IMG/VR virus record: IMGVR_UViG_3300011339_000175
Coordinates: 1-33,974 of that record
DNA from: a virus
Lineage: Duplodnaviria > Caudoviricetes
DNA length: 33,974 nt
Direction: 5' to 3' (one strand)
The notes under the pieces are model-generated. The model was not told the DNA's origin, searched no databases, and saw only the letters and a list, made by a program, of their open reading frames with translations. This document shows, piece after piece, positions 3-32,289 of the stretch; position 1 is the first letter of the stretch; every line of letters begins with the position of its first letter. The translations under genes were made by a program, and so were the position numbers.

Positions 3-311
3 GACGAATTACATAATGTTTATATAACTACACCTTTAAACAATCAAGGTTTAATTTATGAAACTTCAACGCAACTTTGGAAAAATAAAACAATAGATAA
101 AACTTTTGTTGGATTAGGAAATGTTGATAATACTTCAGATGCAAATAAACCAGTTTCAACTGCTCAATCTACTGCTATAAATGCAAAAGTAGCTGATAGT
201 ATAACAGATGGAGTTACAACTATTGCACCAAGTCAAAATGCAGTCTTTGATGCATTGGCTTTAAAACCAGACGAATTACAAGTAGTTCTTTTATCACAAG
301 TATTTTCATAA
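3..311 (+). CDS. C-terminal fragment of tail fibre protein (5'-truncated allele of 30769..31911)
   Basis: Frame 3 reads DELHNVYITTPLNNQGLIYETSTQLWKNKTI...LQVVLLSQVFS*, matching the end of the 380-aa ORF, with 31 extra aa including VGLGNVDNTSDANKPVSTAQ. Confidence 0.85.
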   Translation, partial: DELHNVYITTPLNNQGLIYETSTQLWKNKTIDKTFVGLGNVDNTSDANKPVSTAQSTAINAKVADSITDGVTTIAPSQNAVFDALALKPDELQVVLLSQVFS

Positions 312-329
312 CATAAAAATAAAAAAAAA

Positions 330-689
330 ATGCCAATAAGTAAACAAATATTAAGCGGGTCAACGGGTGGAATGCCTATTAAAGTAGTAGCAACTGCAAC
401 AACTGGAACAACAATACACGCAACTGGAACAAGTGCATCTGTAATTGATGAAGTTTGGCTTTATGCTACTAATACTTCAGCAAGTGCCGTAACATTAACT
501 TTAGAATATGGCTCTACAACTGCACCCGACCAAAATATAATACTTTCAATACCTTCTAAAAGTGGTTTAACAATATGTATAACTGGTTTAATTTTAGTAG
601 GTACTGGTTCAGCAGCAAGAACAATAACTGCTTTTGCAAGTGCTGCCAATGTTATTAATATTGTAGGTTATGTAAATCGTATATCATAA
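330..689 (+). CDS. Small tail-fibre-associated virion protein (allele 1)
   Basis: 119 aa, Thr/Ser/Ala-rich and beta-like, directly after the tail fibre; second allele at 31930. Confidence 0.65.
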   Translation: MPISKQILSGSTGGMPIKVVATATTGTTIHATGTSASVIDEVWLYATNTSASAVTLTLEYGSTTAPDQNIILSIPSKSGLTICITGLILVGTGSAARTITAFASAANVINIVGYVNRIS

Positions 690-1522
690 TGGGTAGATTT
701 GATTTTAAAACAAGAACGGGACAAATATCTACAATTATACAAAGTGGTATTATTGATGCCGATGCACAAGCATTTTTTAATAGAGTAATAGCAGCGGGTG
801 GAACTTTAACAAGTACAGAGCAAATAGCAATTAATGACCTTGTATTAAATATGAAAAGTGCGGGGATTTGGAACTCTATGAAAGCCATTTATCCAATGGT
901 TGGAGCAAGTGCTGCAGCTTGTGCACAGAATTTAAAATCTTCAAGTTTTACTGGTACATTTACAAGCGGTTGGACTTTTGCGAGTACTGGGGTAACGCCT
1001 AATGGAACGAGTGCATATTTTGATACTGGATTTATTCCGAATACAAGTTTAACATTTAATAGCGTAAGTTTTTCTGTTTATTCACGAAATGATTTTACAC
1101 CCTCAACTAACAAAAGTTTTGGTTGTGCTATTGGTGCTTTATCTTTGCCAATTATGGGAGCAACTTTTGAAACAACAAAACGCTATAATAGTTTCATTTA
1201 TAGTTATAATACTCCCGATATTTTAAGTTCAGCAATTAATCAAAATTTTGCAGCTTTGTTTTTAACATCACGAACATCTAATTCTTCTGCTAAATCATTT
1301 AGAAATTCATCAAATATAGCATCTGTAACAACAAATGGTCAAACAACACAGCCAACAAATTCATTTTTATTTGGTGCATTAAGATTACAATCAAGTATAG
1401 TTGAATATCTTGATTTTCAACACGCATTTGCTCATATCGGAGACGGCTTAAACGACACTCAAGCATCTAACTTTTACACAGCAGTACAAGCATTTCAAAC
1501 AACTTTAAGCAGACAAGTATAA
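689..1522 (+). CDS. Putative receptor-binding/tail protein, possible lectin-like (LamG/ConA-like) beta-sandwich
   Basis: 277 aa, Ser/Thr/Asn/Phe-rich, TAATG-coupled within the tail-fibre module; fold is inference. Confidence 0.55.
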   Translation: MGRFDFKTRTGQISTIIQSGIIDADAQAFFNRVIAAGGTLTSTEQIAINDLVLNMKSAGIWNSMKAIYPMVGASAAACAQNLKSSSFTGTFTSGWTFASTGVTPNGTSAYFDTGFIPNTSLTFNSVSFSVYSRNDFTPSTNKSFGCAIGALSLPIMGATFETTKRYNSFIYSYNTPDILSSAINQNFAALFLTSRTSNSSAKSFRNSSNIASVTTNGQTTQPTNSFLFGALRLQSSIVEYLDFQHAFAHIGDGLNDTQASNFYTAVQAFQTTLSRQV

Positions 1523-1743
1523 TGGAAGGATATATTTTAACAATAGAGCAAAAAGAAGAAATACAAGGGGTATTTTATTCAACATACGAGTTTTTTAATT
1601 GTGTGCAAGATATCAACGATATTTGGTTTTTATTTTTATCAGAGCAAGACAAAGAAACAATTATCAATACACAATGGAATTGGTTGTTGAATTTAACAGA
1701 AGGAGAATATGTGCCTAAACCTATAATAATACCAAATGAGTAA
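1522..1743 (+). CDS. Small acidic protein, possible tail fibre chaperone
   Basis: 73 aa, translationally coupled to the 277-aa gene. Confidence 0.55.
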   Translation: MEGYILTIEQKEEIQGVFYSTYEFFNCVQDINDIWFLFLSEQDKETIINTQWNWLLNLTEGEYVPKPIIIPNE

Positions 1744-2861: not shown

Positions 2862-2990
2862 GCTAGTTTAAAGAAAACAAAAAAGTAATGTACTTATACC
2901 TTTATTAAAAAATTGTTGATAAAATACCCTTTAAAATCGATTTTAGCGTTTTTTTTGTATAGATTTACATAAATAACTAAAAATAAAACT

Positions 2991-3827
2991 ATGTCAAAAT
3001 ATCAAGATTTGCACAGTAAAATTTTACCACTAATTAAATATAATTACAATAATACTGACATCGCTAGGAGGTTAATTCCGGATGGAGATTATACAGAAAT
3101 CGAAAATTTACGAAAGTACATAGGCAAAATTAAGACTAAAGATTTAGGAAATTTAGAGCCATATACGCAAGGCAATCCGAACAACATTTTAATTATTGGA
3201 GACTTACACGCTCCATTTAATTTGCCTAATTATTTAGAGTTTTGTCTTGAGCAACAAAAAAAGTTTAAATGTGGGACAGTAGTTTTTATTGGAGACGTTA
3301 TCGATAATCACTATTCAAGTTATCACGAGAGTGACCCAGACGGAATGTCTGCCGGAGACGAATTAGACATCGCAATTTGCGAATTGCAAAAGTATTACAG
3401 AGTATTTCCTAAGGCATCTGTTATTATAGGCAATCACGATAGGTTAGTTTATCGTAAGGCATTTACTGGAGGAGTCTCAAGACGATGGATAAAAGAATAT
3501 AAAGAAGTTTTAAAAGTGCCGAATTGGGATTTTGTAGAAAGTTTAGATTTATTCGATGTTAATATTAATCACGGAGAGGGAGGAACTGCTAGAAGTAAAA
3601 TGAAAAAAGAATTACAGAGTCAAATACAAGGACATTTACATTCAGAGTTATATATTGATTATATAGTAGGAAAGAATTTTAGAATCTTTGGAATGCAAGT
3701 TGGATGCGGGATTGACAATAAAAGTTATGCAATGGCCTATGGCCGCAATTTTAAAAAACCGGCCATAGGTTGTGGAGTACTTTTAAATAAGGGGACTCTG
3801 CCAATAGTTATACCAATGCAGTTATAA
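2991..3827 (+). CDS. Calcineurin-like metallophosphoesterase
   Basis: GDLH, GDVID, GNHD, NHG and GHLH motifs in canonical order. Confidence 0.88.
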   Translation: MSKYQDLHSKILPLIKYNYNNTDIARRLIPDGDYTEIENLRKYIGKIKTKDLGNLEPYTQGNPNNILIIGDLHAPFNLPNYLEFCLEQQKKFKCGTVVFIGDVIDNHYSSYHESDPDGMSAGDELDIAICELQKYYRVFPKASVIIGNHDRLVYRKAFTGGVSRRWIKEYKEVLKVPNWDFVESLDLFDVNINHGEGGTARSKMKKELQSQIQGHLHSELYIDYIVGKNFRIFGMQVGCGIDNKSYAMAYGRNFKKPAIGCGVLLNKGTLPIVIPMQL

Positions 3828-3851
3828 ACATTTTTAGTAAATAAGTTATTT

Positions 3852-3881
3852 ATTGATATATGAATTATATTTCTATCTTTG
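3852..3881 (+). promoter_or_regulatory. Bacteroidota housekeeping-type promoter
   Basis: -7 element TATCTTTG at 3874-3881; ATTG at 3852-3855 as -33. Confidence 0.65.
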
Positions 3882-3885
3882 GCAC

Positions 3886-4211
3886 ATCAATTAGGATGCA
3901 ACCTATTGATTTAGGTTGTTGAATAATTACAGAAACACACCCTATTAAGACTTGCATCCTCTTGATAGGGTTTTTTGTTACCTAAACAAATCGACATAAG
4001 GAATTAAGGGGAAGATTACAACAATTTGACTTATGTTTAAAGCACTAAAATGGGCTTCTAATGGTGCAACTGTGAACGAAACTGCAACGGTCTAACGAAG
4101 TAGAATCAAACAGAGAGTAAAGGTATTAAATGAAAAATATTAATATCTGGATTAAGACTAACGTACTTATTCCCTAAGGCTTCCTCTGTTTACTCACCAG
4201 CTCTAATCTTC
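3886..4211 (+). ncRNA. Putative structured RNA: switch/kissing-loop leader with terminator and downstream stems
   Basis: Hairpin 3886-3910 and terminator hairpin 3940-3976 have complementary loop regions (AGGATGCAA / TTGCATCCT); further stems 3993/4037, 4042/4067, 4108/4191, 4121/4148, 4011/4211. Confidence 0.55.
3940..3976 (+). terminator. Intrinsic terminator/attenuator
   Basis: CCCTATTAAGA-cttgcatcc-TCTTGATAGGG then TTTTTTG. Confidence 0.75.
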
Positions 4212-4267
4212 AAAGTAGTATAATATATTATATACTTAATACTAATTAATAACTAAATAGATAATAT

Positions 4268-4999
4268 ATGAAAGTATGTAGTACTTGTAAAATAGAAAAA
4301 GAATTAACTGAATTTCATAAAAAATTAAATTATTTACAAAGTCTATGTAAAAATTGTCAATCAATTTATTTAAAAAAATATAGATTAAAAAATAAAGAAA
4401 TTTTAAAAGAAAAATCTAAAATATATGTAGAAAACAATAAAGAAATAATTAAACAAAAACAAAAAGAATCTCATAAAAAATATTATTTAGAAAATAAAGA
4501 AATTATAAAAGAAAAAAATAAAATTTATCAAAAAGAAAATAATAGAATAGAATATCATAAACAATATAGATTAAAAAATAAGGAAAAAATAAAAGAATAT
4601 CATAAACAACATAATTTAAACAATAGAGATAAAAAAAATGAATATTATAAAAACAAAAGATTATTAGATAATTTATTTGATTTAAAAATTAGAATAAGAC
4701 AAAGTATAAGAGTTACTTTAAAAAGACAAAATTTTAATAAAAATTCCAAAACATCAGAAATATTAGGATGCTCAATTCAAGAATTTAAAAATTATTTAGA
4801 GTTACAATTTACAAAAGGAATGACTTGGGAAAACGCTGTAGAATGGCATTTAGACCATATTTATCCAGTATCACTTGCAAAGAATGAAGAAGAACTTATA
4901 AGATTAAACCACTATACAAATTTTCAACCTTTATGGGCAAAAGACAATTTACAAAAGAGCAATAAAATAATAGACAATAAACAACTAAAATTAATATGA
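4268..4999 (+). CDS. HNH-type (homing) endonuclease with N-terminal zinc finger
   Basis: CSTC...CKNC, long Lys/Glu helical linker, WHLDHIYP...NHYTNFQPLWAKDNLQKSN; very AT-rich. Confidence 0.8.
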   Translation: MKVCSTCKIEKELTEFHKKLNYLQSLCKNCQSIYLKKYRLKNKEILKEKSKIYVENNKEIIKQKQKESHKKYYLENKEIIKEKNKIYQKENNRIEYHKQYRLKNKEKIKEYHKQHNLNNRDKKNEYYKNKRLLDNLFDLKIRIRQSIRVTLKRQNFNKNSKTSEILGCSIQEFKNYLELQFTKGMTWENAVEWHLDHIYPVSLAKNEEELIRLNHYTNFQPLWAKDNLQKSNKIIDNKQLKLI

Positions 5000-5208
5000 G
5001 TGACATATCAAAATGTTTAGACAGTTTATGTCCAAGTAAAGAGTACTGCCATAGGTATACTGCTCCGGTTGGATTATATCAAAGCTATGGAGGATTTAAC
5101 AGAGAAGAGGATGCCGATAATTGCGATATGTTTTGGCCTAATGGTAAATGTCAGTTTTGTGAATATAGCCAAGAGTCAATTAACGAAATTTTAAAATACG
5201 AAGAATGA
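4996..5208 (+). CDS. Small Cys-rich hypothetical protein
   Basis: DISKC-x4-CP-x4-CHRYTAP; ATGA-coupled on both sides. Confidence 0.65.
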   Translation: MSDISKCLDSLCPSKEYCHRYTAPVGLYQSYGGFNREEDADNCDMFWPNGKCQFCEYSQESINEILKYEE

Positions 5209-5705
5209 AAACAACAGAAAACGACAACGGAAACAACATTATATTAATAGCTCTTATATTAGCTTTATTAGGTGCTATATTTTTAACGTCTTGTGGTAGC
5301 AGAAAGGTCCAGAAGTCAGAAACTAAAGAACAAGAGCAAAAAACGGAAAAAATTACCGTTGAAACTCAAACGAGAGTAACAGACAACACTAAAATAATAG
5401 ACACCTCCTCTACAGATGAGATAGAGATTATTCCGGTAGATAATACTTTGCCTATTACAGTTAATGGAAATAAATATACAAATAGCCGTATTAAGTGGAA
5501 AAAAGTAAAAAACAATATAAGTACAGTAAAAGATGTAAAAGTCCAACACAACGCAGAAAAAAGCGGTTTAAAGACGGTTAAAAGAGACTTAATAATCGAA
5601 AGGAAACTAATAGACAGAAAACAATCTTACTGGTGGTTACTTTGGTTTTTGTTATTAATACCGGCTTACTACGTTTGGAGAAAGTATAAAGGTTTTTTTA
5701 TATGA
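5205..5705 (+). CDS. Lipoprotein with C-terminal TM helix, putative unimolecular spanin
   Basis: Hydrophobic signal ending in lipobox LTSC; C-terminal YWWLLWFLLLIPAYYVWRK. Confidence 0.6.
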   Translation: MKTTENDNGNNIILIALILALLGAIFLTSCGSRKVQKSETKEQEQKTEKITVETQTRVTDNTKIIDTSSTDEIEIIPVDNTLPITVNGNKYTNSRIKWKKVKNNISTVKDVKVQHNAEKSGLKTVKRDLIIERKLIDRKQSYWWLLWFLLLIPAYYVWRKYKGFFI

Positions 5706-6253
5706 AAGATAAGAAGTGTAAAGTCTGTCAAACTAAATTTACTCCGGTCCAGTTCGCACAAGCAGTCTGCGGATATAAATGTGCTATTGAACACTCAAAG
5801 AAACTTAAAGAACTAAAAGAGCAAAGAGAGTGGAAAGCAGAGAAAGCCATTTTAAGAGACAAACTTAAAACTTTGGGGCAATATGAGGCAGAGGCAAAAA
5901 AGTCCTTTCAAAAGTACATTAGAATGCGAGATGCTTCGTTTCCGTGCATATCTTGTGGAGTAGAAAATACAGACCTTTTTGATGGCGGCCATTTTAAAAA
6001 AGCAGAGATATACTCCGGAGTTATATTTGACGAGCATAACTGTCACAAGCAATGCAGAAAATGTAATCGGTTTCTAGGAGGAAATGAATTAAATTACAGA
6101 GCCGGATTGATTCAGAGATACGGAGTTGAATATACAGACCAGATAGAAGAGAAAGCAAACAACACACGAAACTACAAGTTTTCAAAATGCGAACTTATTG
6201 CTAAAAAATTAAAGTACGATATTTTAATAAAAGAGTTTGCAAAGTCAAAATAA
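5702..6253 (+). CDS. ninG: NinG/Rap-like recombination endonuclease
   Basis: KKCKVC...VCGYKCA, FQKYIRMRD, CISCG, DGGHF, NCHKQCRKCN. Confidence 0.88.
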   Translation: MKDKKCKVCQTKFTPVQFAQAVCGYKCAIEHSKKLKELKEQREWKAEKAILRDKLKTLGQYEAEAKKSFQKYIRMRDASFPCISCGVENTDLFDGGHFKKAEIYSGVIFDEHNCHKQCRKCNRFLGGNELNYRAGLIQRYGVEYTDQIEEKANNTRNYKFSKCELIAKKLKYDILIKEFAKSK

Positions 6254-6266
6254 AACACTACATTTG
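6236..6266 (+). promoter_or_regulatory. Bacteroidota-type promoter driving the short RNA
   Basis: TTTG (6236-6239)-N19-TACATTTG (6259-6266), consensus spacing. Confidence 0.75.
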
Positions 6267-6270
6267 GAGT

Positions 6271-6344
6271 GATATTGTTTTCATAATATTATTTTTGTTT
6301 TGGTTAAGAAGTCCCAGTCTTTTATTAGGTTGGGATTTTTTTTT
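6271..6344 (+). ncRNA. Putative ~70-nt antisense small RNA against early-gene translation starts
   Basis: Bounded by promoter and terminator, no ORF; contains ATTGTTTTCAT and TTTTGTTTTGGTT, complementary to 6517-6539 and 9181-9193. Confidence 0.6.
6311..6344 (+). terminator. Intrinsic terminator
   Basis: TCCCAGTCT-tttatt-AGGTTGGGA followed by 9 T. Confidence 0.8.
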
Positions 6345-6387
6345 AAAAATAATTATCAAAATATTTTTTTATTAACAAAATGTTTAT

Positions 6388-6395
6388 TAAGTTTG
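6388..6395 (+). promoter_or_regulatory. Early operon promoter, -7 element
   Basis: TAAGTTTG about 30 nt upstream of the first early ORF (6425). Confidence 0.6.
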
Positions 6396-6424
6396 TCCTC
6401 GTTAAACAATTAAAACAAACTAAT

Positions 6425-6511
6425 ATGAAAACATTTTTATCAAAACAAAAGTACCAAGTTTACGCAATAGGAATTATTGCAGTATATTTTTTAACTAGAT
6501 TTTTTTACTAA
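6425..6511 (+). CDS. 28-aa single-TM peptide (not in ORF track)
   Basis: MKTFLSKQKYQVYAIGIIAVYFLTRFFY*, A-rich leader. Confidence 0.5.
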   Translation: MKTFLSKQKYQVYAIGIIAVYFLTRFFY

Positions 6512-6528
6512 ACTAAAACCAAAACAAA

Positions 6529-6762
6529 ATGAAAACAATTAGCGAACAATTAGGAACGATTATCGGATTAGGAATTGATTTGAATGTATTTTTTAGCGTA
6601 AATGTAACCACAACCGGAGTAACATTAATCGGTAACCATTCAGACGAAGTACAAGCGTATTTAATAACAAACGGATTTAAAGTTTATGAGTATTTATATT
6701 CTGATAATCCGGAGTGGATTGAGTTGATAAAAGACGGTTGTAGAGTAGCATTATCTAAATAA
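6529..6762 (+). CDS. Hypothetical early protein
   Basis: 77 aa, A-rich leader AACCAAAACAAAATG. Confidence 0.7.
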   Translation: MKTISEQLGTIIGLGIDLNVFFSVNVTTTGVTLIGNHSDEVQAYLITNGFKVYEYLYSDNPEWIELIKDGCRVALSK

Positions 6763-6763
6763 G

Positions 6764-6922
6764 ATGAGAAAGTTTTTATTTACATACTGGACAGAAAGGA
6801 ATGACGAAAGCACAGACGTAGAAATAGTCATCTCTGCTAATCACGAGGAAGAGGCATTATTCAGTTTTTTAGAAATGAATATAGTCTATAAAAGAATAGA
6901 ATCAATACAAGAGATATTATGA
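6764..6922 (+). CDS. Hypothetical early protein (52 aa, not in ORF track)
   Basis: MRKFLFTYWTERNDESTDVEIVISANHEEEALFSFLEMNIVYKRIESIQEIL*; tight packing. Confidence 0.6.
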   Translation: MRKFLFTYWTERNDESTDVEIVISANHEEEALFSFLEMNIVYKRIESIQEIL

Positions 6923-7095
6923 GAGTAGAGGATTGGAATTGGATAGAGATATACTGCGAAATGCGTAGAGTATTTGAAAGAGACAAAGAACTAACTCACA
7001 TAGAAGTCACATTCAACATCAAGCCGGTAGAGACAGAAAAAAAGACCGCTATTATAAACATAAAGACTTATGATGAACGAAATAACAGACACTAG
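6919..7095 (+). CDS. Hypothetical early protein (58 aa, not in ORF track)
   Basis: MRVEDWNWIEIYCEMRRVFERDKELTHIEVTFNIKP...; ATGA overlap. Confidence 0.6.
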   Translation: MRVEDWNWIEIYCEMRRVFERDKELTHIEVTFNIKPVETEKKTAIINIKTYDERNNRH

Positions 7096-7246
7096 ATATG
7101 TACTGCTTGAAGAGGGAAAGCCTTATATACTTTTACTAACTGAAAGACAAGCAAAGCAAGAGCAGCGAAAATATAAAGAGATGTATCCACATTTAGACTA
7201 TACAATCTTTTACGATGAATATTACGAGTACAGTGAATATAATTAA
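7070..7246 (+). CDS. Hypothetical early protein (58 aa, not in ORF track)
   Basis: MMNEITDTRYVLLEEGKPYILLLTERQAK...YYEYSEYN*. Confidence 0.55.
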   Translation: MMNEITDTRYVLLEEGKPYILLLTERQAKQEQRKYKEMYPHLDYTIFYDEYYEYSEYN

Positions 7247-7262
7247 CTAAAAACAAAAACAA

Positions 7263-7481
7263 ATGAAAAACTACAAGAATTGGAGTACAAAAGAACTGGT
7301 AAACTATTTAAACCAGAGTAACGAAGCATTAAGAATCGAGAACAAAAGACTAATGGATGAGAACGAAAGACTGACAATGAACATCGAAGTTCATAACGCA
7401 GAAATTTTGAGCGATTATTACAATCAAAGTTTTTATACCTTTACACAATCAAATAGTAACGTAACCTTTAAAACAAATTAA
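7263..7481 (+). CDS. Hypothetical coiled-coil protein
   Basis: 72 aa, heptads NEALRIENKRLMDENERL. Confidence 0.65.
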   Translation: MKNYKNWSTKELVNYLNQSNEALRIENKRLMDENERLTMNIEVHNAEILSDYYNQSFYTFTQSNSNVTFKTN

Positions 7482-7484
7482 AAA

Positions 7485-8186
7485 ATGGAATCATACAATT
7501 ATAATCAGTTTATTTTTAATGAAAAAAATAGAGAAATTAGTCCTAAAAATGTTAGAGACATTAAAAATTCAATTCTAGAAGTTGGATTTATAAAGCAAAG
7601 ACCAATTTTAATAAACGAAGAAAATTTAATTATTGATGGACATCATAGATTTTTAGCTCTAAAAGAATTGCAAATGCCAATTTGTTATGAAGTAGAAAAT
7701 AAAATTTCTCTAAAAGAAATGATACTGTTAAATAGTTCTCAAAGAAGTTGGACATTATCAGATTTTATTTATTTATATGCTAAAGAAAATATAAAAGCAT
7801 ATAAAGAATTAGTTTTAATATCTGAAAAATATAATTTAACAATGTCAAATACAATTATAACAGTTTTAAAAAATGCAACTTCTGGAGCTGGAACATCTAA
7901 AGGAATAAAAAATGGTTATGATTTTGAGATATATGAAAAAAAAGATGAATTAATACAATTAATTTTAACCGCAAAAGAAAATATAGGTTTTTCAATAAAA
8001 AAAGATTTTGTAATATCGTTAAGATTTCTTTTAGAGAGAGCAAATTTTAAACAAATACAAAAAGTAATTGATAATTTTTCATCAATTAGAGAGCAAACTT
8101 CTATTAATAATTATTTAATCACATTTGAAAATATTATAAATAGAAAAATGGGAGACGCAAACAAAATTAATCTTTTAAAACAATAA
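7485..8186 (+). CDS. ParB/Srx-like N-terminal domain protein
   Basis: NREI...PILIN...IIDGHHRFLALKEL; AT-rich. Confidence 0.75.
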   Translation: MESYNYNQFIFNEKNREISPKNVRDIKNSILEVGFIKQRPILINEENLIIDGHHRFLALKELQMPICYEVENKISLKEMILLNSSQRSWTLSDFIYLYAKENIKAYKELVLISEKYNLTMSNTIITVLKNATSGAGTSKGIKNGYDFEIYEKKDELIQLILTAKENIGFSIKKDFVISLRFLLERANFKQIQKVIDNFSSIREQTSINNYLITFENIINRKMGDANKINLLKQ

Positions 8187-8188
8187 AA

Positions 8189-8785
8189 ATGAGCAAAACA
8201 ATTATCAGTTTACCGGCAGACGAAATTCCGTTATGTATCGGAGAGAAACTTTGCAGAATTCAGCAAGAGTTCAAAGCAAAAAAGAGCAGATTTAATTCAT
8301 TCGGAAAGTATAACTTTCGAAGTGCAGAGGATATTCTAGAGGGATTAAAACCAATGAATGAGAAGTACGGAGTTTACTTTACTATTAACGAACAACTAAT
8401 TAACGCTAATCCTCCAGTTATGACTTCGGTTGCAACAATCTGGGACTGCGAGAGTGGAAAGAGTATCGACTGCTCTGCGGTAGTTGGAATAGATTTAAAC
8501 CAGAAAGGAATGCAAACTCCTCAAGCGTTTGGAAGTGCATCAAGTTACGCAAAAAAATACGCTCTAGGCAACTTACTTTTGATTGATGATACTGCCGATG
8601 CCGATGCAACTAATACGCACTCAAAAGAGCCGGTAAAAGCAAAAGAGAATGTATTTTTAGAATTTGACACTCCAGAGTTTGCAAAAGCATTAACTTACAT
8701 AGCCGGTGGAGGAGACATAGAACTAATAGAGAAAAAATATAAATTAACTAACGAAGTAAAACAAGCACTTTTAAACAACAAATAA
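8189..8785 (+). CDS. erf: ERF-family single-strand annealing recombinase
   Basis: FNSFGKYNFRSAEDIL and QAFGSASSYAKKYAL motifs. Confidence 0.85.
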   Translation: MSKTIISLPADEIPLCIGEKLCRIQQEFKAKKSRFNSFGKYNFRSAEDILEGLKPMNEKYGVYFTINEQLINANPPVMTSVATIWDCESGKSIDCSAVVGIDLNQKGMQTPQAFGSASSYAKKYALGNLLLIDDTADADATNTHSKEPVKAKENVFLEFDTPEFAKALTYIAGGGDIELIEKKYKLTNEVKQALLNNK

Positions 8786-8786
8786 A

Positions 8787-9143
8787 ATGGAAGTACAAGG
8801 AGAATTAATCGTAATAGGCGATACAGAAACAATCGGAGCAAAAGGATTCAGAAAGAGACTTGCAGTCATTAAAACAGACGAACAATATCCTCAGACTATT
8901 CCGGTTGAATTTACACAAGACAAAGTTAGTTTATTAGATAACTTTAATACTGGAGACATTGTTAAAATAGGAATCAACTTGAGAGGAACAGAATGGAAAG
9001 GCAAATACTTTGCAAACATTCAAGGTTGGCAAATTAACAAAGGAGAGAAAGAGAAGTCTGCCGGTAGTTTTATGCCAGACAGAGAAGCTATCAATAATAT
9101 GATGGAGTATGCAGAGGAACAACACGATGATTTACCATTCTAA
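8787..9143 (+). CDS. Single-stranded DNA-binding protein (DUF3127-like, Bacteroidota type)
   Basis: GFRKR...EQYPQTIPVEFTQDK...INLRGTEW...YFANIQGWQI; acidic tail DDLPF. Confidence 0.85.
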   Translation: MEVQGELIVIGDTETIGAKGFRKRLAVIKTDEQYPQTIPVEFTQDKVSLLDNFNTGDIVKIGINLRGTEWKGKYFANIQGWQINKGEKEKSAGSFMPDREAINNMMEYAEEQHDDLPF

Positions 9144-9150
9144 TTTTAAA

Positions 9151-9180
9151 GGCCGGATGTAATAGTCCGGCCATTATTTA
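9151..9180 (+). terminator. GC-rich hairpin after SSB (weak terminator or processing site)
   Basis: GGCCGGA-tgtaatag-TCCGGCC then ATTATTT. Confidence 0.55.
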
Positions 9181-9192
9181 AACCAAAACAAA

Positions 9193-10104
9193 ATGCTAAT
9201 AGATTACAATAAACAACTAGATATCCTCCGCCAGATTAGATCTGGTAAACTCAAAGAGGGATTAAAACTAGATATCCCTCAGTTAGACGAATACATACGT
9301 TTTAAGACATCAAACTTCAATATAGTACTTGGACACGCAAACGTAGGTAAAACGACCTCTATTTTGTATTTAATGCTTTGTTACTCTTTAAAGCACGATT
9401 TAAAATGGCTAGTATGTAGCACCGAGAATGATTCTTACTCTTTAATTAGAAAGTTAGTTGAGTTTTTAGATGAGACTCCGATAAATTTAGTCTCTGAAAG
9501 TAACTTTAAAACTCACACCGATTTTATCAATAAACATTTTAAGTTTGTAGATAACGCAACTATGTACGATTATCATTCTGCGATTGATATGTTTAAAGCA
9601 GTAAAGAAAGATTTTAATTTTAACGGAATATTACTTGATCCATACAATGCACTCATAAAAGATAACGATTTAATGAAGACTCTAGGAGGTCACGAGTACG
9701 ATTACCAAGCGTGTACTGAAATGAGAATGTATTGCAAAGAGAATAAAGTTTCACTTTGGTTAAATACTCACGCAAATACAAACGCATTAAGACAAGTTTA
9801 CAGAGCAGACCATCCATTCGCTGGACATCCACTTCCTCCAATGGCAAGTGATGTCGAGGGAGGAGGAAAGTTCGTAAACAGAGCAGATGATTTTATAGTA
9901 GTACACCGGTTAACTTTGCATCCTCAACTATACACAACTACGATGCTGCATATAAGAAAGATAAAAGAGATTGAAACCGGAGGCAGACCTACCAGTATAG
10001 ACAATCCGATTGAAATTGTAGCTTTGCAAAATAACGTAGGATTTAGTATAGACGGAAAATCGATTTTAACGACCATAAAAGAAAGTCAATTAAATTTTTT
10101 ATAA
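9193..10104 (+). CDS. SF4 (DnaB/T7 gp4-like) helicase domain without primase
   Basis: Walker A GHANVGKT, Walker B ILLDPYN, GGGKFVNRADDFIVVHR. Confidence 0.8.
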   Translation: MLIDYNKQLDILRQIRSGKLKEGLKLDIPQLDEYIRFKTSNFNIVLGHANVGKTTSILYLMLCYSLKHDLKWLVCSTENDSYSLIRKLVEFLDETPINLVSESNFKTHTDFINKHFKFVDNATMYDYHSAIDMFKAVKKDFNFNGILLDPYNALIKDNDLMKTLGGHEYDYQACTEMRMYCKENKVSLWLNTHANTNALRQVYRADHPFAGHPLPPMASDVEGGGKFVNRADDFIVVHRLTLHPQLYTTTMLHIRKIKEIETGGRPTSIDNPIEIVALQNNVGFSIDGKSILTTIKESQLNFL

Positions 10105-10105
10105 A

Positions 10106-10645
10106 ATGAATATACTCGATGTCCTATATCTGAAGCATTCCACTTGGTTAAAATACGTAAAATCATTTGGATGCCCAGATGACATCGCAGAGGATTATGT
10201 ACAAGAGATGTATATAAAAATCTACAATTATAGTCAGATAAAAAATAACGATTTAATGTATGACGGAGAAGAGATAAACTTCTTTTTTGTGTACGTGACT
10301 TTAAAAAATATGTTTTACGATGACTTACGTAAGAATAAAAAAAAAATATACGTAAACATAGACGAGATAATTTTAATCGAAGAGCCAAGCGAATACTCAG
10401 AGGAGAAGTTTTATTTTCAAAAAGATTTAGTTAGTAATTGGATTAAAGAGTTAAACAACGAAATAGACTCAATAGAGGACCATACAGAGTACAAAGCAAG
10501 TCTTTGTTATATAAAGTTCATTTATCAAAAAATATTCGTTGAAAGTTACTCAATTACTGATTTAAGCGAAGAGACAAAACTATCGTACTGGAGCATTCGA
10601 AATACAGTTAAAAGAATCAAAGAACAAATAAAAAATGAAACATAA
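10106..10645 (+). CDS. ECF-like RNA polymerase sigma factor
   Basis: AEDYVQEMYIKI (region 2) and C-terminal HTH SITDLSEETKLSYWSIRNTVKRIK. Confidence 0.8.
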   Translation: MNILDVLYLKHSTWLKYVKSFGCPDDIAEDYVQEMYIKIYNYSQIKNNDLMYDGEEINFFFVYVTLKNMFYDDLRKNKKKIYVNIDEIILIEEPSEYSEEKFYFQKDLVSNWIKELNNEIDSIEDHTEYKASLCYIKFIYQKIFVESYSITDLSEETKLSYWSIRNTVKRIKEQIKNET

Positions 10646-10823
10646 TTTAGAGGACCAATTTACAAGCGTTTTAAGAGCCGAATTATTACTGAGTAAGTAT
10701 AAGATACCATATTTAAAAGAAGTTATAAACGGCCTTATTCAAAACGCTAAAAGCAGAGGAGAAATAATAGAGTTAAACTACTGGAATGAAGTAGCACTCG
10801 AAATTAAAAAAAGAATAGTATGA
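10635..10823 (+). CDS. Hypothetical protein (YWNEV C-terminal family)
   Basis: 62 aa; C-terminus YWNEVxxEI shared with 11235..11447. Confidence 0.6.
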   Translation: MKHNLEDQFTSVLRAELLLSKYKIPYLKEVINGLIQNAKSRGEIIELNYWNEVALEIKKRIV

Positions 10824-11020
10824 CACTAAAAGAAAAGTTTTCACTAGTATTAATGGAATTTTGGACAAGTGATTGGGAAGGTAAATGCGAACAAGTAGCA
10901 GATGAATTTGCTATTGGATTTGCAGAGTGGTTATTAATAATATATAACGAAGATATTATTTATGATGCATACTCAAAAGAGCAACTATTAGAAATTTACA
11001 AAAAAGAAAATGAATTATGA
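10820..11020 (+). CDS. Hypothetical protein (ADEFAIGFA family, copy 1)
   Basis: Paralogue of 11017..11238; ATGA coupling. Confidence 0.7.
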   Translation: MTLKEKFSLVLMEFWTSDWEGKCEQVADEFAIGFAEWLLIIYNEDIIYDAYSKEQLLEIYKKENEL

Positions 11021-11238
11021 AAGCAATAAGACAAGCGCAAACAAGAGATATTTTAGATGCTTATAATAGAGAAGATATTTCTTATTCAAGAATGAATGAA
11101 ATGTTTAACGAGTTAGCAGATGAATTTGCTATTGGATTTGCAGATTGGGTTAGAGTTTGTAAATTAAAGCAAAGGCCTTATGATTTTGACAACATAAAAG
11201 AACTATTAGAAATCTATAAAAAAGAAAAAGGATTATGA
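11017..11238 (+). CDS. Hypothetical protein (ADEFAIGFA family, copy 2)
   Basis: 31-bp exact repeat shared with copy 1. Confidence 0.7.
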   Translation: MKAIRQAQTRDILDAYNREDISYSRMNEMFNELADEFAIGFADWVRVCKLKQRPYDFDNIKELLEIYKKEKGL

Positions 11239-11447
11239 CACCAAAAGAAAAAGCAATAGAGTTAATTCACAAATTTGCAAAGCCAATAGATGCAATGCAT
11301 AAATATCCTATGTGTTATGAAACATCAAAACAATGTGCATTAATAGCAGTTAATGAAATTATTGATTCATTACAAATAAAAAATTACTCACAAGCAGACC
11401 AGTACGAATATTGGAATGAAGTTAAAAACGAAATAGAAAAACTATGA
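11235..11447 (+). CDS. Hypothetical protein (MTPKEKA...KQCALIAV...YWNEV family)
   Basis: 70 aa; ATGA coupling. Confidence 0.7.
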   Translation: MTPKEKAIELIHKFAKPIDAMHKYPMCYETSKQCALIAVNEIIDSLQIKNYSQADQYEYWNEVKNEIEKL

Positions 11448-11557
11448 CACCAAGAGAGAAAAAAGAATTAGAGTACGTTTTAAAAACTGCAACGCAAGTA
11501 GCAATAGGAATAGCAGTATTATTTTTTGGATTACTAATTTTAACTACTATACTATGA
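11444..11557 (+). CDS. 37-aa single-TM peptide (not in ORF track)
   Basis: MTPREKKELEYVLKTATQVAIGIAVLFFGLLILTTIL*; ATGA overlaps at both ends. Confidence 0.55.
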   Translation: MTPREKKELEYVLKTATQVAIGIAVLFFGLLILTTIL

Positions 11558-11688
11558 GACTAGGAGATAAACTAGAATGGTTATTCAGAGTAACCGGCAT
11601 CCAATGGCTAGTAAAAAAAATCTATCCGAATTGCAACTGCGATAAAAGAAGAGACAAGTTAAACCAATTTAAAATAAATAGAAAATGA
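11554..11688 (+). CDS. 44-aa CxC protein (not in ORF track)
   Basis: MRLGDKLEWLFRVTGIQWLVKKIYPNCNCDKRRDKLNQFKINRK*. Confidence 0.65.
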   Translation: MRLGDKLEWLFRVTGIQWLVKKIYPNCNCDKRRDKLNQFKINRK

Positions 11689-11894
11689 AACAAACAGCAG
11701 TAGAATGGTTATATAAAAACCTATTAGAAAATCCAATATCAAATCAAGATGTAGAATATAATGAAGCAGTATTTCATAATGCCAAAGCAATGGAAAAGGA
11801 GCAAGTAATAAATGCTTGTGAAAAGTTTGGTAATTTAAACGGAGTAAATCAAGAAGATTATGAACGATACTATAATGATACTTATGGAAAATAG
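11685..11894 (+). CDS. Hypothetical protein (KQTAVEWL family, copy 1)
   Basis: KQTAVEWL...AKAMEKEQ. Confidence 0.7.
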   Translation: MKQTAVEWLYKNLLENPISNQDVEYNEAVFHNAKAMEKEQVINACEKFGNLNGVNQEDYERYYNDTYGK

Positions 11895-12084
11895 CAAACA
11901 AACAGCAGTAGAATGGTTAGCAGAAAAATTAAGAATTGAATTTGGATTTGCATTTAGCAATAACATTTTAGAAGAAGCTAAAGAAATGGAAAAAGAACAA
12001 ATGCGAAGTGCAAGTTGTCCTTATATTGGTGGCTGGGAAGAGGGAGAGTTTGAATATTGGTATAATGAAAAATTTAAAAAATAA
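11884..12084 (+). CDS. Hypothetical protein (KQTAVEWL family, copy 2)
   Basis: Likely start MENSKQTAVEWL at 11884; AKEMEKEQ; 24-bp exact repeat with copy 1. Confidence 0.7.
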   Translation: MENSKQTAVEWLAEKLRIEFGFAFSNNILEEAKEMEKEQMRSASCPYIGGWEEGEFEYWYNEKFKK

Positions 12085-12088
12085 AGTT

Positions 12089-12304
12089 ATGACAAAAGAA
12101 GACTGGATCTGGTGGCAGACATTCAGAGATAATTTAGGGCATACAATTTCAAACGATGAGTATTTAAAAGTAAGTCAGTTACACGCTCATTACTTTAATC
12201 ACAAAGTTAACTATCCTTGCAAGTGCAGTCCTAAAATAATTCAAAGTTATATCGATGATTTGAATGAATTTTACATAAAAAATCCAACACCAAAATTAAG
12301 ATGA
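12089..12304 (+). CDS. Hypothetical CxC protein
   Basis: Likely start MTKEDWIWW at 12089 (avoids long overlap); YPCKCSP. Confidence 0.65.
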   Translation: MTKEDWIWWQTFRDNLGHTISNDEYLKVSQLHAHYFNHKVNYPCKCSPKIIQSYIDDLNEFYIKNPTPKLR

Positions 12305-12714
12305 GCCAAGAGACATCACACCATAAATGGGAGAAAGGAATCATTTTACTTCTTACGTTAGACGGTTGGAATTTAGAATGGACTGGAGGAGAGTTTGAGC
12401 ATTACGATGCCAAAGGAAAAACACCGAAAGGATTTGACTGCGTAATAGAGTTTAAATTAAGACACGCATATTATCCAACTAAAGTACTAGAGAAATACAA
12501 ATATGATAAGTTAATTGAAATGCAAGACTGCTTAAAATTTTACTATGTATTTGACTCTAGAGGCAACTATCTTTATTATTTAGATTCGTTAGAACTACCA
12601 GAGCAAAGTATAATAAACTGCAAAGTAAATGAGAAGTTTGGAAATTCAAATTTAATAAACAAATCTGTTTACTTTTTATCAGAGAGCCAAGCATCATTAA
12701 TAAATAAATACTAA
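12301..12714 (+). CDS. Putative PD-(D/E)XK nuclease
   Basis: E...HYDAKG...VIEFKLR pattern. Confidence 0.55.
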   Translation: MSQETSHHKWEKGIILLLTLDGWNLEWTGGEFEHYDAKGKTPKGFDCVIEFKLRHAYYPTKVLEKYKYDKLIEMQDCLKFYYVFDSRGNYLYYLDSLELPEQSIINCKVNEKFGNSNLINKSVYFLSESQASLINKY

Positions 12715-12717
12715 AAA

Positions 12718-12748
12718 TTTGTTAATAACATAAAAAAGATTATCTTTG
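12718..12748 (+). promoter_or_regulatory. Bacteroidota-type promoter
   Basis: TTTG (12718-12721)-N19-TATCTTTG (12741-12748). Confidence 0.75.
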
Positions 12749-12772
12749 TAAACAAACTAAAACCAAAATAAT

Positions 12773-12889
12773 ATGAATGAATTAATCAAAACAGAAGCTA
12801 TACTCAAAGAGATAATATCAGAGAGAGAAAGAGCAAAAAAAGAACTAGTAGAGCAAATAGAGGAAATAACTAGACTAGTAACGATATGA
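12773..12889 (+). CDS. 38-aa coiled-coil peptide (not in ORF track)
   Basis: MNELIKTEAILKEIISERERAKKELVEQIEEITRLVTI*; ATGA overlap with exonuclease. Confidence 0.55.
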   Translation: MNELIKTEAILKEIISERERAKKELVEQIEEITRLVTI

Positions 12890-13596
12890 TAGTTTTAATA
12901 GACGCAGACAGTTTAATCTGGAGCAGTTGTTATAAGCAAAAAGAAACTCCAGAGGATACCGGTTACCATAACATCGAAGAGGCCAAAGATAAGTACAACG
13001 AAGTAGTAATGAAAATCATTAATACTATCGAACTAGACCACGAAGTTGATAAGGTTATTACTTTTGCTTGTGCTAGAGGAAACTTTCGAAAACAGATAAG
13101 CAAAACATACAAAGCAAACAGAATAGGCAGAGAAGTACCTCCGATACTAAACGAACTTCAAGACTATGTCAAAGAGCAATACGATGCTAAAATAGGATAC
13201 GGAGTAGAGACAGACGATTTAGTAGCAACCTACTGGACTAATTTAACAGAGACATTCGGAAGAGACGAAGTAATAATTGTAAGTATAGACAAAGACTACA
13301 AACAACTTCCTTGCATTATATATGACTATCATTATAAAAAACAATGCTATTATAAAATAACAGAGGGAGCAGCAAAATATAATTTTTATAAGCAAATGAT
13401 AATAGGAGATACTGCAGACAATGTAAACTTCTGCAAAGGATATGGAGCAAAGTGGGTTGAAAACGCATTTAAAGACTGCGTAAGCGATTATAATTATATG
13501 CGAGTAGTATTTAGTCTATTTAAAAAAATACACAAGCAGAAAGCACGAGAGAGATTTATAGAATGTTACTTACTTTTAAAATTAAAAACAAAATAA
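12886..13596 (+). CDS. 5'-3' exonuclease/RNase H (T5/T7-type FEN family)
   Basis: LIDADS, NFRK...YKANR, ETDD, SIDKDYKQ, GDTADNV...KGYG. Confidence 0.88.
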   Translation: MIVLIDADSLIWSSCYKQKETPEDTGYHNIEEAKDKYNEVVMKIINTIELDHEVDKVITFACARGNFRKQISKTYKANRIGREVPPILNELQDYVKEQYDAKIGYGVETDDLVATYWTNLTETFGRDEVIIVSIDKDYKQLPCIIYDYHYKKQCYYKITEGAAKYNFYKQMIIGDTADNVNFCKGYGAKWVENAFKDCVSDYNYMRVVFSLFKKIHKQKARERFIECYLLLKLKTK

Positions 13597-13597
13597 A

Positions 13598-13726
13598 ATG
13601 AAAATAGAAATTGAATTTTTTAAAACACAAGATTTAGGAATAGGAATAGGTTTTAATCGTATTGATAAAAGTATAAGCATTCTATTTTTAATATGGCTTT
13701 TACAAATAAACTTTAAAAAGAAATAA
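13598..13726 (+). CDS. 42-aa hydrophobic peptide (not in ORF track)
   Basis: MKIEIEFFKTQDLGIGIGFNRIDKSISILFLIWLLQINFKKK*; fills the gap exactly. Confidence 0.5.
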   Translation: MKIEIEFFKTQDLGIGIGFNRIDKSISILFLIWLLQINFKKK

Positions 13727-13727
13727 A

Positions 13728-14111
13728 ATGGAATACAAATTAATAGCAAACGAGATAAAAGACAAACTAGGAGTTAACATATATGAGAACTCACGAAAGA
13801 GACCAATAATAGACGCAAGGAGTTTATTCTGTTATATCTTACGCAAAGATTTTAATCTTACGTTACATAGTATAGCAGACATATACAAGAGCAAAGGTAA
13901 AAATTATGACCACGCAACAGTTATTCACTCTGTAAATAATTACGATTTAGCTTGTAGAGACGATAAAAGACTTGAAGAGATAAGAGCCAAAGTTTTAAAA
14001 ACAACTAATCCTCAAGCAGTACTCATAAATAGAATTAGAGACATAAACGACAAAGACAGATTACAAGGACTACACAACTTAATAGATTTTCAAGAGCAAC
14101 AACTAAAATAA
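13728..14111 (+). CDS. DnaA C-terminal (domain IV)-like HTH protein
   Basis: SRKRPIIDARSLFCYILR...TLHSIA...DHATVIHSV signature. Confidence 0.8.
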   Translation: MEYKLIANEIKDKLGVNIYENSRKRPIIDARSLFCYILRKDFNLTLHSIADIYKSKGKNYDHATVIHSVNNYDLACRDDKRLEEIRAKVLKTTNPQAVLINRIRDINDKDRLQGLHNLIDFQEQQLK

Positions 14112-30769: not shown

Positions 30770-31911
30770 TGAGCGATATAATAGACATAAATATAAGTCC
30801 AGTAATAGAAACGGTTGACTTAACTATTGAGCCGAATCTAACTACTATAAACGTTAACACAGTTACCGGAGGAGGAGGAGCAGTTGATTCAGTTAACGGA
30901 CAGATTGGAGTTGTAGTTTTAGACCAAGACGATATCCTTGACGGAACTACTTACAAGCAATATTCACTTACTGAAAAAAATAAACTTTCGGGAATTGAAG
31001 CCGGAGCAGAAGTAAATGTTAATGCTGATTGGAATGCTACAAGTGGTGATGCTCAAATATTAAATAAGCCAACTATTCCAAGCGTTACAAATTTAGTTCC
31101 TTATACCGGTGCAACTACTGATGTTGATTTAGGAGAGTTTGAATTAAAAGCTGGACAAGTTGAATTTGACCAAACACCAACGGGAACTGCTGGAGTAGGA
31201 GTAATGCGATGGAATGATACAGATGGAACTGTTGATTTAGGTTTAAAAGGTGGAAACGTTACATTACAAATAGGTCAAGAGGAAGTTGTCAGAGTTGTAA
31301 ATAAAACTGCAACAAATATAAATTTATTACAAGCAAATTACCAAGCAGTAAGAGTAACTGGCGCACAAGGTCAACGTTTAAAAGTAGATTTAGCACAAGC
31401 TACAAATGATAATTTAAGTGCTGAAACAATAGGATTAGTTACTGAAACAATAAACAACAATCAAGAAGGATTTATTACAACAAATGGATTAGTAAGAAAC
31501 ATAAATACTACTGGTTCTTTACAAGGTGAAACTTGGGTTGATGGTGATATAGTTTATTTAAGTGCAACTACTGCTGGAAGAATTACAAATGTTAAACCAC
31601 TTGCACCAAATCATTTAGTTATTATTGGTTATGTAGTTTCTGCTCACATCACACAAGGCTCTATATTTGTTAAGATTAATGTAGGTTATGAATTAGACGA
31701 GCTACACAATGTTTCTATATCTACACCTTTAAACAATCAAGCATTAACTTATGAAACTTCAACGCAACTTTGGAAAAATAAAACTATAATTGAAGATAGT
31801 ATAGCAGATGGAGTAACAGACAAAGCACCAAGTCAAAACGCAGTCTTTGATGCATTGGCTTTGAAACCAGACGAATTACAAGTAGTATTATTAAGTCAAG
31901 TATATTCATAA
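30769..31911 (+). CDS. Tail fibre protein
   Basis: VDSVNGQIGVVVL, KLSGIEAGAEVNVNADWNATSGDAQILNKP, VPYTGAT, LDELHNV fibre motifs. Confidence 0.8.
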   Translation: MSDIIDINISPVIETVDLTIEPNLTTINVNTVTGGGGAVDSVNGQIGVVVLDQDDILDGTTYKQYSLTEKNKLSGIEAGAEVNVNADWNATSGDAQILNKPTIPSVTNLVPYTGATTDVDLGEFELKAGQVEFDQTPTGTAGVGVMRWNDTDGTVDLGLKGGNVTLQIGQEEVVRVVNKTATNINLLQANYQAVRVTGAQGQRLKVDLAQATNDNLSAETIGLVTETINNNQEGFITTNGLVRNINTTGSLQGETWVDGDIVYLSATTAGRITNVKPLAPNHLVIIGYVVSAHITQGSIFVKINVGYELDELHNVSISTPLNNQALTYETSTQLWKNKTIIEDSIADGVTDKAPSQNAVFDALALKPDELQVVLLSQVYS

Positions 31912-31929
31912 CATAAAAATAAAAAACAT

Positions 31930-32289
31930 ATGCCAATAAGTAAACAAATATTAAGCGGTTCAACGGGTGGAATGCCTATTAAAGTAGTAGCAACTGCAAC
32001 AACTGGAACAACTATCCACGCAACTGGAACAAGTGCATCTGTAATTGATGAAGTTTGGCTTTATGCAACTAATACTTCAGCAAGTACTGCAACATTAACT
32101 ATTGAATATGGCTCTACAACTGCACCCGACCAAAATATAATACTTTCAATTCCAGCTAAAAGTGGTTTAACTATTTGTGTTGCGGGTACAATTTTAGTAG
32201 GTACTGGTTCAGCAGCAAGAACAATTACTGCTTTTGCAAGTACTGCCAATGTTATTAATATAGTAGGTTATGTAAATCGTATATCATAA
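31930..32289 (+). CDS. Small tail-fibre-associated virion protein (allele 2)
   Basis: 111/119 aa identical to 330..689. Confidence 0.65.
   Translation: MPISKQILSGSTGGMPIKVVATATTGTTIHATGTSASVIDEVWLYATNTSASTATLTIEYGSTTAPDQNIILSIPAKSGLTICVAGTILVGTGSAARTITAFASTANVINIVGYVNRIS

Follow-up and report, generated by a model that had tools for sequence, protein, structure and literature searches.

A probable small RNA, predicted to pair with the translation starts of early and replication genes, in a family of presumed Flavobacteria phages

The window, by which we mean the whole stretch of DNA analysed here (33,974 nt), is one virus record, and every gene called in it lies on the + strand. The lysis genes are followed by ninG (5702-6253), the predicted RNA unit described below, small early genes, the Erf and SSB genes, and a DnaB-like helicase gene starting at 9193, after which come a weakly sigma-like gene, a methyltransferase gene, the terminase and the structural genes. 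Since SSB matches exclusively Flavobacteriaceae phages, and the portal protein solely the Nonlabens phages P12024L and P12024S (35%), which are the nearest cultured phages by portal, we infer that the host of the window phage is a flavobacterium. No cultured phage with a helicase of the window type was found (best identity 29%), and no match to the sigma-like gene was found among cultured phages. None of the 53 window ORFs scanned matched an integrase or repressor PHROG. An imperfect repeat links the two ends of the window (195-1731 and about 31795-33331; 96.8% over 1537 nt, offset 31.6 kb); probably two strain variants, with a circularly permuted genome of ~31.6 kb, were joined in the assembly. 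The sigma-70-like gene (10106-10645, + strand) lies directly after the helicase gene and occurs in 52 copies across 53 lineages. Weak matches to Sigma70_r2 were obtained for 8 of 27 members of its family, and to r4_2 for 3 of 27 (E<=0.01); the protein of the window itself was under the Pfam cut-off and had no PDB match. We regard this divergent gene as a candidate late-gene activator.

The unit between ninG and the early genes begins with a predicted promoter of the Bacteroidota primary-sigma type (6236..6266, + strand), in which TTTG (6236-6239) is followed after 19 nt by TACATTTG (6259-6266), giving TTTG-N19-TACATTTG. Its -33 box lies inside the 3' end of ninG, the stop of which is at 6253. 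According to the available text of PMC7366714, the Bacteroidota promoter consensus is TAnnTTTG with TTTG at -33. The predicted small RNA (6269..6344, + strand) is ~75 nt long if transcription starts 2-4 nt past the -7 box, and this segment holds no ORF of at least 45 aa. Seed 1 (6274..6292, + strand) complements a start codon region (ATGAAAACAAT plus the upstream TAATATT) and is partly enclosed, as judged by folding, in a weak 5' hairpin with a UUUU loop; its portion ATTGTTTTCAT (6274-6284) is the exact reverse complement of 6529-6539. Seed 2 (6293..6305, + strand), mostly unpaired, is the complement of a lineage-specific 'address' (anti-AACCAAAACAAAA), and its sequence TTTTGTTTTGGTT is the reverse complement of 6517-6529 and of 9181-9193, these three places being the sole occurrences of the 13-mer in the window. 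The RNA ends in a predicted intrinsic terminator (6306..6344, + strand), a long hairpin followed by a U run, which was also found in related units. It was absent from the output of a strict scan, one of the E. coli type for promoters and terminators and ill suited here; the fold of the whole RNA reaches -18 kcal/mol (z -4.25). The upstream lysis-ninG transcript is predicted to end at this terminator too. The -7 box of a predicted early promoter, TAAGTTTG, follows at 6388..6395 (+ strand). The promoter, the seeds, the terminator and an early promoter behind it, together with partial matches at 6425, 7251-7270 and 12761-12777, had been reported in a preliminary description of the locus, and the positions of its promoter, seeds, terminator and partial matches were confirmed base for base. 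A comparison with Rfam 15 found nothing in the vicinity of the unit (E<=5), and nothing in seven relatives at gathering score. Contigs from an RNA library, the only one found (run X1, 30% of words), carry neither strand nor ends; they cover all 30 bins of 2900-14000 and also all 30 bins of 5950-6850, late and intergenic parts included, and so speak neither for nor against the small RNA.

Matches to the seeds at the translation starts of the window were compared with those of 5000 dinucleotide shuffles of the seed region. The 13-mer match was found at 2 of 58 start regions versus 0.08 expected (P 0.005) and 9-mer matches at 15 of 58 versus 5.4 (P 0.002), while 11-mer matches (2 of 58 versus 0.7, P 0.17) were not significant. 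The predicted target that pairs with both seeds is the start of the 77-aa early gene (6505..6542, + strand). The duplex at this start (6529) has an energy of -22.5 kcal/mol versus -9.6 +/- 2.6 kcal/mol for shuffles, none of 1000 of which equalled it, and is 13.0 kcal/mol better than with non-cognate RNAs. At the start of the DnaB-like helicase gene (9193-10104; target 9169..9206, + strand), upstream of which a terminator is predicted (9151-9172), the duplex energy is -15.8 versus -9.4 +/- 2.4 kcal/mol, and 16 of 1000 shuffles were equal or better. The start of the first early gene (6401..6438, + strand) is also a predicted target, with a duplex of -17.3 kcal/mol (7.3 better than with non-cognate RNAs). 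This gene (6425-6511) encodes a 28-aa hydrophobic peptide without PHROG or Pfam match, of which the close clade keeps 25-29-aa versions, and which by its shape alone recalls a membrane-acting exclusion or host-arrest peptide. A further predicted target is the start (7239..7276, + strand) of a gene for a 72-aa coiled-coil protein (7263-7481), which, like the helicase gene, is a predicted target family-wide; the protein has generic coiled-coil matches only, with no family assigned. In distant clades the coiled-coil gene is often the first early gene. Downstream, a predicted second early promoter, TTTG-N19-TATCTTTG, is combined with a target start of a 38-aa ORF at 12773 (12718..12786, + strand; -20.0 kcal/mol, 10.6 better than non-cognate). 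Another candidate, missed by the preliminary description, is the start of a 73-aa ORF at 11017 (10993..11030, + strand), the duplex of which (-23.7 kcal/mol, 13.0 better than non-cognate) depends on G-U pairs and is less certain. The complementarity exceeds that of non-cognate controls and of composition-matched shuffles, the latter being a comparison on which the preliminary description had staked its reading. Within the window it is real but modest in a single AT-rich genome, and the comparative evidence is stronger.

Among 24 NinG loci, the 16 closest show the same layout after ninG (two end inside it), and in the eight distant ones (L017-L024; 32-53% identity) the unit is absent from the position after ninG. 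When three helicase scans (the best 80 of 587 helicase-bearing stretches, the best 80 of 498, and all 20) were pooled with the window and the NinG loci, 177 loci with a helicase gene resulted, some contigs being represented twice. In a search for prophages, the GTDB scan gave three loci, all on short MAG contigs of 7-30 kb. A relaxed detector asking for a promoter box, at least 40% U, and a hairpin with a U run found the unit in 140 of the 177 loci, with the U content and the -7-like box being criteria of the search and start codons coming from a simple rule. Six more units were rescued from a stricter first pass, and two unit promoters were set by hand. Of the 31 loci without a scripted unit, 29 have less than 4 kb upstream of the helicase, and most are truncated. 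Where a locus extends 4 kb or more on the upstream side of the helicase, the unit is invariably present in the same position (93 of 93 loci, which are redundant; the script called 91, and L135 and L161 were recognised by eye). No clear unit was found in Flavobacterium phage morran9-1. In 35 lineages the RNA is 51-97 nt long (median 73); its -7 box reads TATATTTG, TATCTTTG or TACATTTG in 21 of them, TTG is present within the -33 window in 20, and in 30 a promoter box lies no more than 130 nt past the terminator. A non-coding insert of 100-200 nt, probably structured, lies right after the terminator in L035, L040, L042, L044, L046, L055 and L056, where the order is early promoter, leader and first early gene.

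The preliminary description had suggested a check for covariation of the RNA and its target leaders across related phages, and such covariation is what we observed: the seed is not conserved between lineages, yet it matches the translation starts of its own genome. Examples of seed and leader are TTTTAGTGA with TCACTAAAA, TTTCTCTGT with ACAGAGAAA, TATTGTCCT with AGGACAATA, ATTGTCTTTTAA with TTAAAAGACAAT, and TTGTTATCA with TGATAACAA. In relatives with the TTAGTG seed (14 early regions), CACTAAAA occurs 53 times and AACCAAAA 6 times, and in those with the TTTGGTT seed (5 early regions), AACCAAAA occurs 14 times and CACTAAAA not once. The seed switches even between phages whose helicases are 93-96% identical, and the leaders switch along with it.

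To quantify this, all-versus-all duplex energies were double-centred for 35 lineages with less than 80% helicase identity. At the helicase start, the cognate RNA gave -15.1 versus -8.9 kcal/mol for non-cognate RNAs (z -12.8) and was within the best tenth in 29 of 35 lineages; at the first early start z was -9.4, with the cognate RNA within the best tenth in 25 of 35, and at the second early start -5.8 (n 30). When the test was confined to 15 lineages below 70%, z was -7.4 for the helicase and -5.7 for the first early start. As controls, the start of the gene that follows the helicase gene, in the window the sigma-like one (z +0.9, n 23), the terminase (+1.1, n 14) and three helicase coding windows (-1.5, -1.7 and +0.1) showed no such preference. 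Genes before the RNA gave z -2.0 and -2.4, or -3.6 by longest match. The starts of structural, packaging and lysis genes were neutral (pooled mean 0.01 kcal/mol, n 162), and no avoidance of pairing by structural genes was seen. Exact 9-mers told the same: 57 cognate matches versus 12.0 for non-cognate RNAs at early starts, 95 versus 29.4 at starts downstream of the helicase, and 22 versus 15.7 at starts upstream of the RNA, but 22 versus 21.7 in the early region away from starts and 2 versus 2.3 in the opposite orientation. The pairing excess is restricted to starts and to the antisense-to-mRNA orientation.

By gene family, in 53 lineages, the helicase (n 53, t -8.3) and the coiled-coil family (40-72 aa; 48 genes; 4.75 kcal/mol better than non-cognate, t -8.5) appeared as two universal targets, and a few small genes as clade-specific ones. 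In disjoint sister pairs on the helicase tree, the cognate RNA was better at the helicase start in 26 and worse in 8 of 35 pairs (p 0.0007), and at the coiled-coil start better in 22 and worse in 6 of 31 (p 0.0007); the first early start was marginal (23:11, sign p 0.058). The start of the ninG family, intended as a negative control, leaned to the cognate RNA in sister pairs (23:9, p 0.006, uncorrected, with 25 families tested) and weakly in the all-versus-all test (genes before the RNA, above), and had no cognate preference at the family level (t -0.9); the lean may reflect multiple testing or a weak real link. Some lineages have no helicase match, among them L097, L131 and L133 with their very short leaders. 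Pairing was best at promoter-proximal starts from the RNA to 4.5 kb past the helicase, where cognate RNAs surpassed non-cognate ones by 5.3 (early region, n 71) and 4.5 kcal/mol, and starts far from a promoter were 2.6 kcal/mol better than with non-cognate RNAs (n 214). Promoter-proximal starts upstream of the RNA were not targeted (0.1 kcal/mol difference, n 82). The coverage by pairing is highest at -12 to -5 relative to the start.

The minus strand of the unit reads MKTISLQM, and the preliminary description had conceded that the unit might be a decayed inverted gene start. This candidate was rejected: the minus-strand peptides are unrelated and not conserved, CAT is present in the unit in 14 of 35 lineages and absent from 21, and a minus-strand promoter box was found in 4 of 35. 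Taken together, the shuffles, the non-cognate controls and the minus-strand checks support the core claim of a stand-alone RNA predicted to be antisense to multiple translation starts.

Could the matches be maintained in DNA rather than in RNA, either because a phage protein binds there or because template switching or gene conversion keeps the two arms of a neutral quasi-palindrome alike? In the close relative L026 the leader of the 77-aa gene, a few hundred bases away from the unit, is complementary to both seeds along ~31 nt, interrupted by a single 2-nt bulge (the L027 leader is the same), many targets are promoter-proximal, and G-U pairs did not outnumber A-C mismatches in cognate duplexes (52:28) more than in non-cognate ones (708:496; p 0.29), all of which would fit such a repeat. 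However, the extra matches are in a single orientation and at start codons only, they include promoter-distant starts and the helicase start 0.7-5 kb away, and the copy always sits between a promoter box and a terminator. In addition, the seed of the TTAGTG group is carried on a hairpin with compensatory and G-U pairs. The pair beyond G-C, examined in 16 of 19 sequences, was U-A in six, G-C in four, A-U in three, and C-G, U-G and a mismatch in one each; the U-G/U-A alternation fits the + strand only. The 19 sequences were picked by seed, and the covariation count is partly a one-base register shift; the seed hairpin is missing in the lineage of the window itself. Because of the one-way orientation, the anchoring at start codons, the enclosure between promoter and terminator, and the hairpin pairs of the TTAGTG group, we favour an RNA and consider the DNA-level explanation unlikely. 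As the L026 leader is a near-perfect inverted copy, inverted copying of a leader is a likely source of new seeds, and it was not taken as a sign of junk, since the minus-strand ORF is not conserved.

Slightly less probable, in our view, is that the unit acts in cis as a silencer, in which case its seeds, carried on transcripts reading through from the lysis genes and ninG, would fold onto the nearest early leaders and block their late translation. The unit does lie directly upstream of the first early genes, and in the minimum-energy fold of 6270-6545 both seeds pair with 6517-6539 and the terminator hairpin is kept. In such an arrangement, however, a dedicated promoter would be superfluous, and the strongest covariation would not be expected at the helicase start, which is kilobases away behind another terminator and often has its own promoter box (20 of 35 versus a 14.5% background); starts downstream of the helicase are enriched too (95 versus 29.4).

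The pairing data place the RNA at 5'-proximal leaders and do not give the sign of its effect, so it might instead aid these leaders, by protecting the 5' end from decay or recruiting a factor, or serve as a decoy for a host protein binding U-rich RNA; GibS, according to the accessible part of its description, may activate one target (PMC7366714). We hold this to be still more doubtful, as the targets are unstructured A-rich leaders, the pairing covers adenines needed for initiation, and a decoy would not need genome-specific covariation. Least probable of all is that host mRNAs with similar A-rich leaders are the main targets (host shut-off) and the phage matches secondary: seed 1 of the window clade does complement the generic start context ATTATGAAA, at the 9-mer level in 15 of 58 window starts, but the seed follows the phage leaders lineage by lineage, even among phages with 93-96% identical helicases, and the unit has no CAT in 21 of 35 lineages.

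The unit is real, conserved and specific. The comparison shows its promoter-seed-terminator layout, its fixed place before the early promoter, and the lineage-wise matching of seed to starts. We therefore consider it likely, though judged from sequence, that it encodes a trans-acting antisense RNA repressing the translation of several of the phage's own early and replication genes. In the mechanism that we propose, the host RNA polymerase would make the RNA from its predicted host-sigma promoter, and the RNA would pair with the A-rich region in which ribosomes land on several early mRNAs, so that their translation is blocked. As the RNA and its targets share host-sigma promoters, all of them would fire at infection. 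Protected by its terminator, the RNA would accumulate and mask the stretch from -12 to -5, which contains the adenines driving initiation in Flavobacterium. In F. johnsoniae, according to the available text of PMC6847099, initiation is favoured by A-3, A-6, A-12 and A-13 and by low structure. Since the best targets are the first genes of promoter-proximal units, repression could reach downstream genes, and polarity from the helicase could hit the sigma-like gene. The arrangement would amount to an incoherent feed-forward loop, in which the early mRNAs and their antagonist are products of the same host polymerase: the RNA would then damp the mRNAs, and early as well as replication proteins would be made in a pulse. 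If a second phage of the same address arrived later, it would be silenced as well.

Among possible jobs of this RNA, we give about half of the weight to the timing of early and replication proteins and the limiting of their dose, as an inherent part of lytic growth. The exclusion of later phages with the same address, a natural by-product, is the next most likely, and the holding of a dormant state is third; these phages may have a dormant state that is non-integrated. The suggestion of the preliminary description that the RNA could serve as an 'RNA-only' shut-off, immunity or carrier-state switch is weaker than its core claim. A tyrosine integrase and an HTH_3 repressor are absent from 31 of 32 near-complete relatives, and the one exception, record G003, consists of two joined phages, with the integrase and an XRE-type repressor belonging to the second phage. 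This second phage has the same morphogenesis module and, just past its integrase (G003:C1:46683-46760, in L197), a look-alike promoter-seed-terminator unit that matches two starts of this phage over 10 and 11 nt. The occurrence of the look-alike in a temperate relative with a protein repressor weakens the 'RNA-only' reading and means that the RNA need not replace such a repressor. It is a tentative idea, which we think possible but would not bet on, that one RNA and a private start-site address run the whole early programme in widespread, apparently non-integrating Flavobacteria phages, and are re-keyed between lineages to make RNA-defined exclusion groups. If so, an infected or dormant cell would silence any incoming phage of the same address without a protein repressor.

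Bacteroidota lack Hfq and do not use Shine-Dalgarno sequences. As in the class of trans-encoded base-pairing sRNAs, the unit is, at the sequence level, an independent non-coding one with its own promoter and terminator, and its short imperfect complementarity is evolutionarily maintained, with the ninG control being partly positive. According to the available text of PMC11697453, FopS of Bacteroides blocks the translation of first cistrons by pairing at their start sites, and the phage RNA is likewise predicted to pair beside first-cistron start codons. FopS and GibS are bound by RbpB and act on PUL and metabolic mRNAs. As far as the accessible parts of their descriptions tell, both are encoded in the host chromosome, keep a conserved seed and target genes for glycan uptake and metabolism (PMC11697453, PMC7366714), and one FopS-like sequence was noted in a phage (PMC11697453). 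Unlike them, the RNA studied here is phage-borne and single-copy, is aimed at the early genes and helicase of its own genome, and has a seed that turns over between lineages; in place of the conserved R1/R1' seed there is a lineage-specific one, and no Rfam match was found.

The antisense RNA c4 has a P1/P7 specificity switch and a conserved multi-stem fold; it is processed from the transcript that it controls, acts by premature termination and serves lysogeny. In the portions of PMC8201110 and PMC4825925 available to us, c4 (P1/P7) and CI RNA (P4), like the RNA proposed here, pair with separate short sites in the phage's own lytic transcript and restrain lytic functions. According to the same portions, CI RNA stops the expression of replication genes, and it is processed from the transcript it controls, causes premature termination at flanking sites and serves lysogeny (PMC8201110, PMC4825925). 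In contrast to c4 and CI, the unit is delimited by a promoter and a terminator of its own and followed by a separate early promoter; apart from the terminator it shows no conserved fold, and its predicted targets lie in several transcription units kilobases away. Rfam 15 models of c4 and CI gave no match near the unit (E<=5), and no icd/ant or kil-type PHROG was matched among the 53 window ORFs. The RNA would work like FopS and GibS and follow a logic like that of c4 and CI, yet it fails membership of both groups.

The sar RNA of P22 overlaps its target. As described in the accessible parts of PMC12197685 and PMC7067206, sar blocks translation initiation, OOP of lambda steers the lysis-lysogeny decision, and STnc6030 of BTP1 excludes superinfection; each aims at one gene or operon, and OOP and STnc6030 are transcribed opposite their target. 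In the available text of a phage sRNA review, sar is tabulated as trans (PMC12197685). Unlike these three, the unit shares its strand with its targets but lies apart from them in the genome, without overlap, which separates it from cis-encoded antisense RNAs of the OOP type with their full complementarity to a target on the opposite strand, and it combines short imperfect seeds with many targets. We found no published account of such an RNA in the literature, where subscription journals were thinly covered, and a motif outside Rfam could exist. The accessible part of the 2025 phage sRNA review contains neither 'Bacteroid' nor 'Flavobacter' (PMC12197685).

The unit offers a concrete candidate answer to how host-promoter-driven early genes are shut off in a large phage family. 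To our knowledge, such shut-off has been explained for few small phages in which neither a repressor nor an early regulator can be recognised, least of all in Bacteroidota. In the seed-address pairs, nature supplies compensatory mutants that are ready for use; the same pairs may underlie superinfection groups and could be employed in Flavobacteria as translational switches orthogonal to one another. Moreover, the address flags early-regulon genes among hypothetical ORFs and singles out the uncharacterised coiled-coil protein, which would be controlled as tightly as the helicase.

In Nonlabens phage P12024L (L106; NC_018272.1), a similar unit lies after the holin gene (9826-9900), and the same holds for P12024S (L195). 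Two promoter-proximal leaders are matched by it exactly, over 12 and 11 nt; by duplex energy they rank just 8th and 15th of 60 starts, and matches of comparable length are also present within coding DNA; that it is the same kind of RNA is suggestive only. P12024L is the sole bench-ready candidate, with a pairing that is weak by energy.

The window contains a second ORF-less promoter-terminator unit of ~95 nt (3877-3980, + strand), located before the endonuclease gene and without Rfam match. A 6-8-nt stretch of its 5' hairpin complements the loop of its own terminator hairpin, and the two stretches covary in 16 distinct related units (caught by pattern, with 5-8 nt exact in each), suggesting that this is likely a kissing-loop or pseudoknot RNA. 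It is followed in many relatives by a conserved non-coding stretch (3980-4260 in the window) that ends in an AT-rich tract and begins with ACCTAAA, the complement of TTTAGGT within the second RNA, and that is possibly a replication origin or a partner of this RNA.
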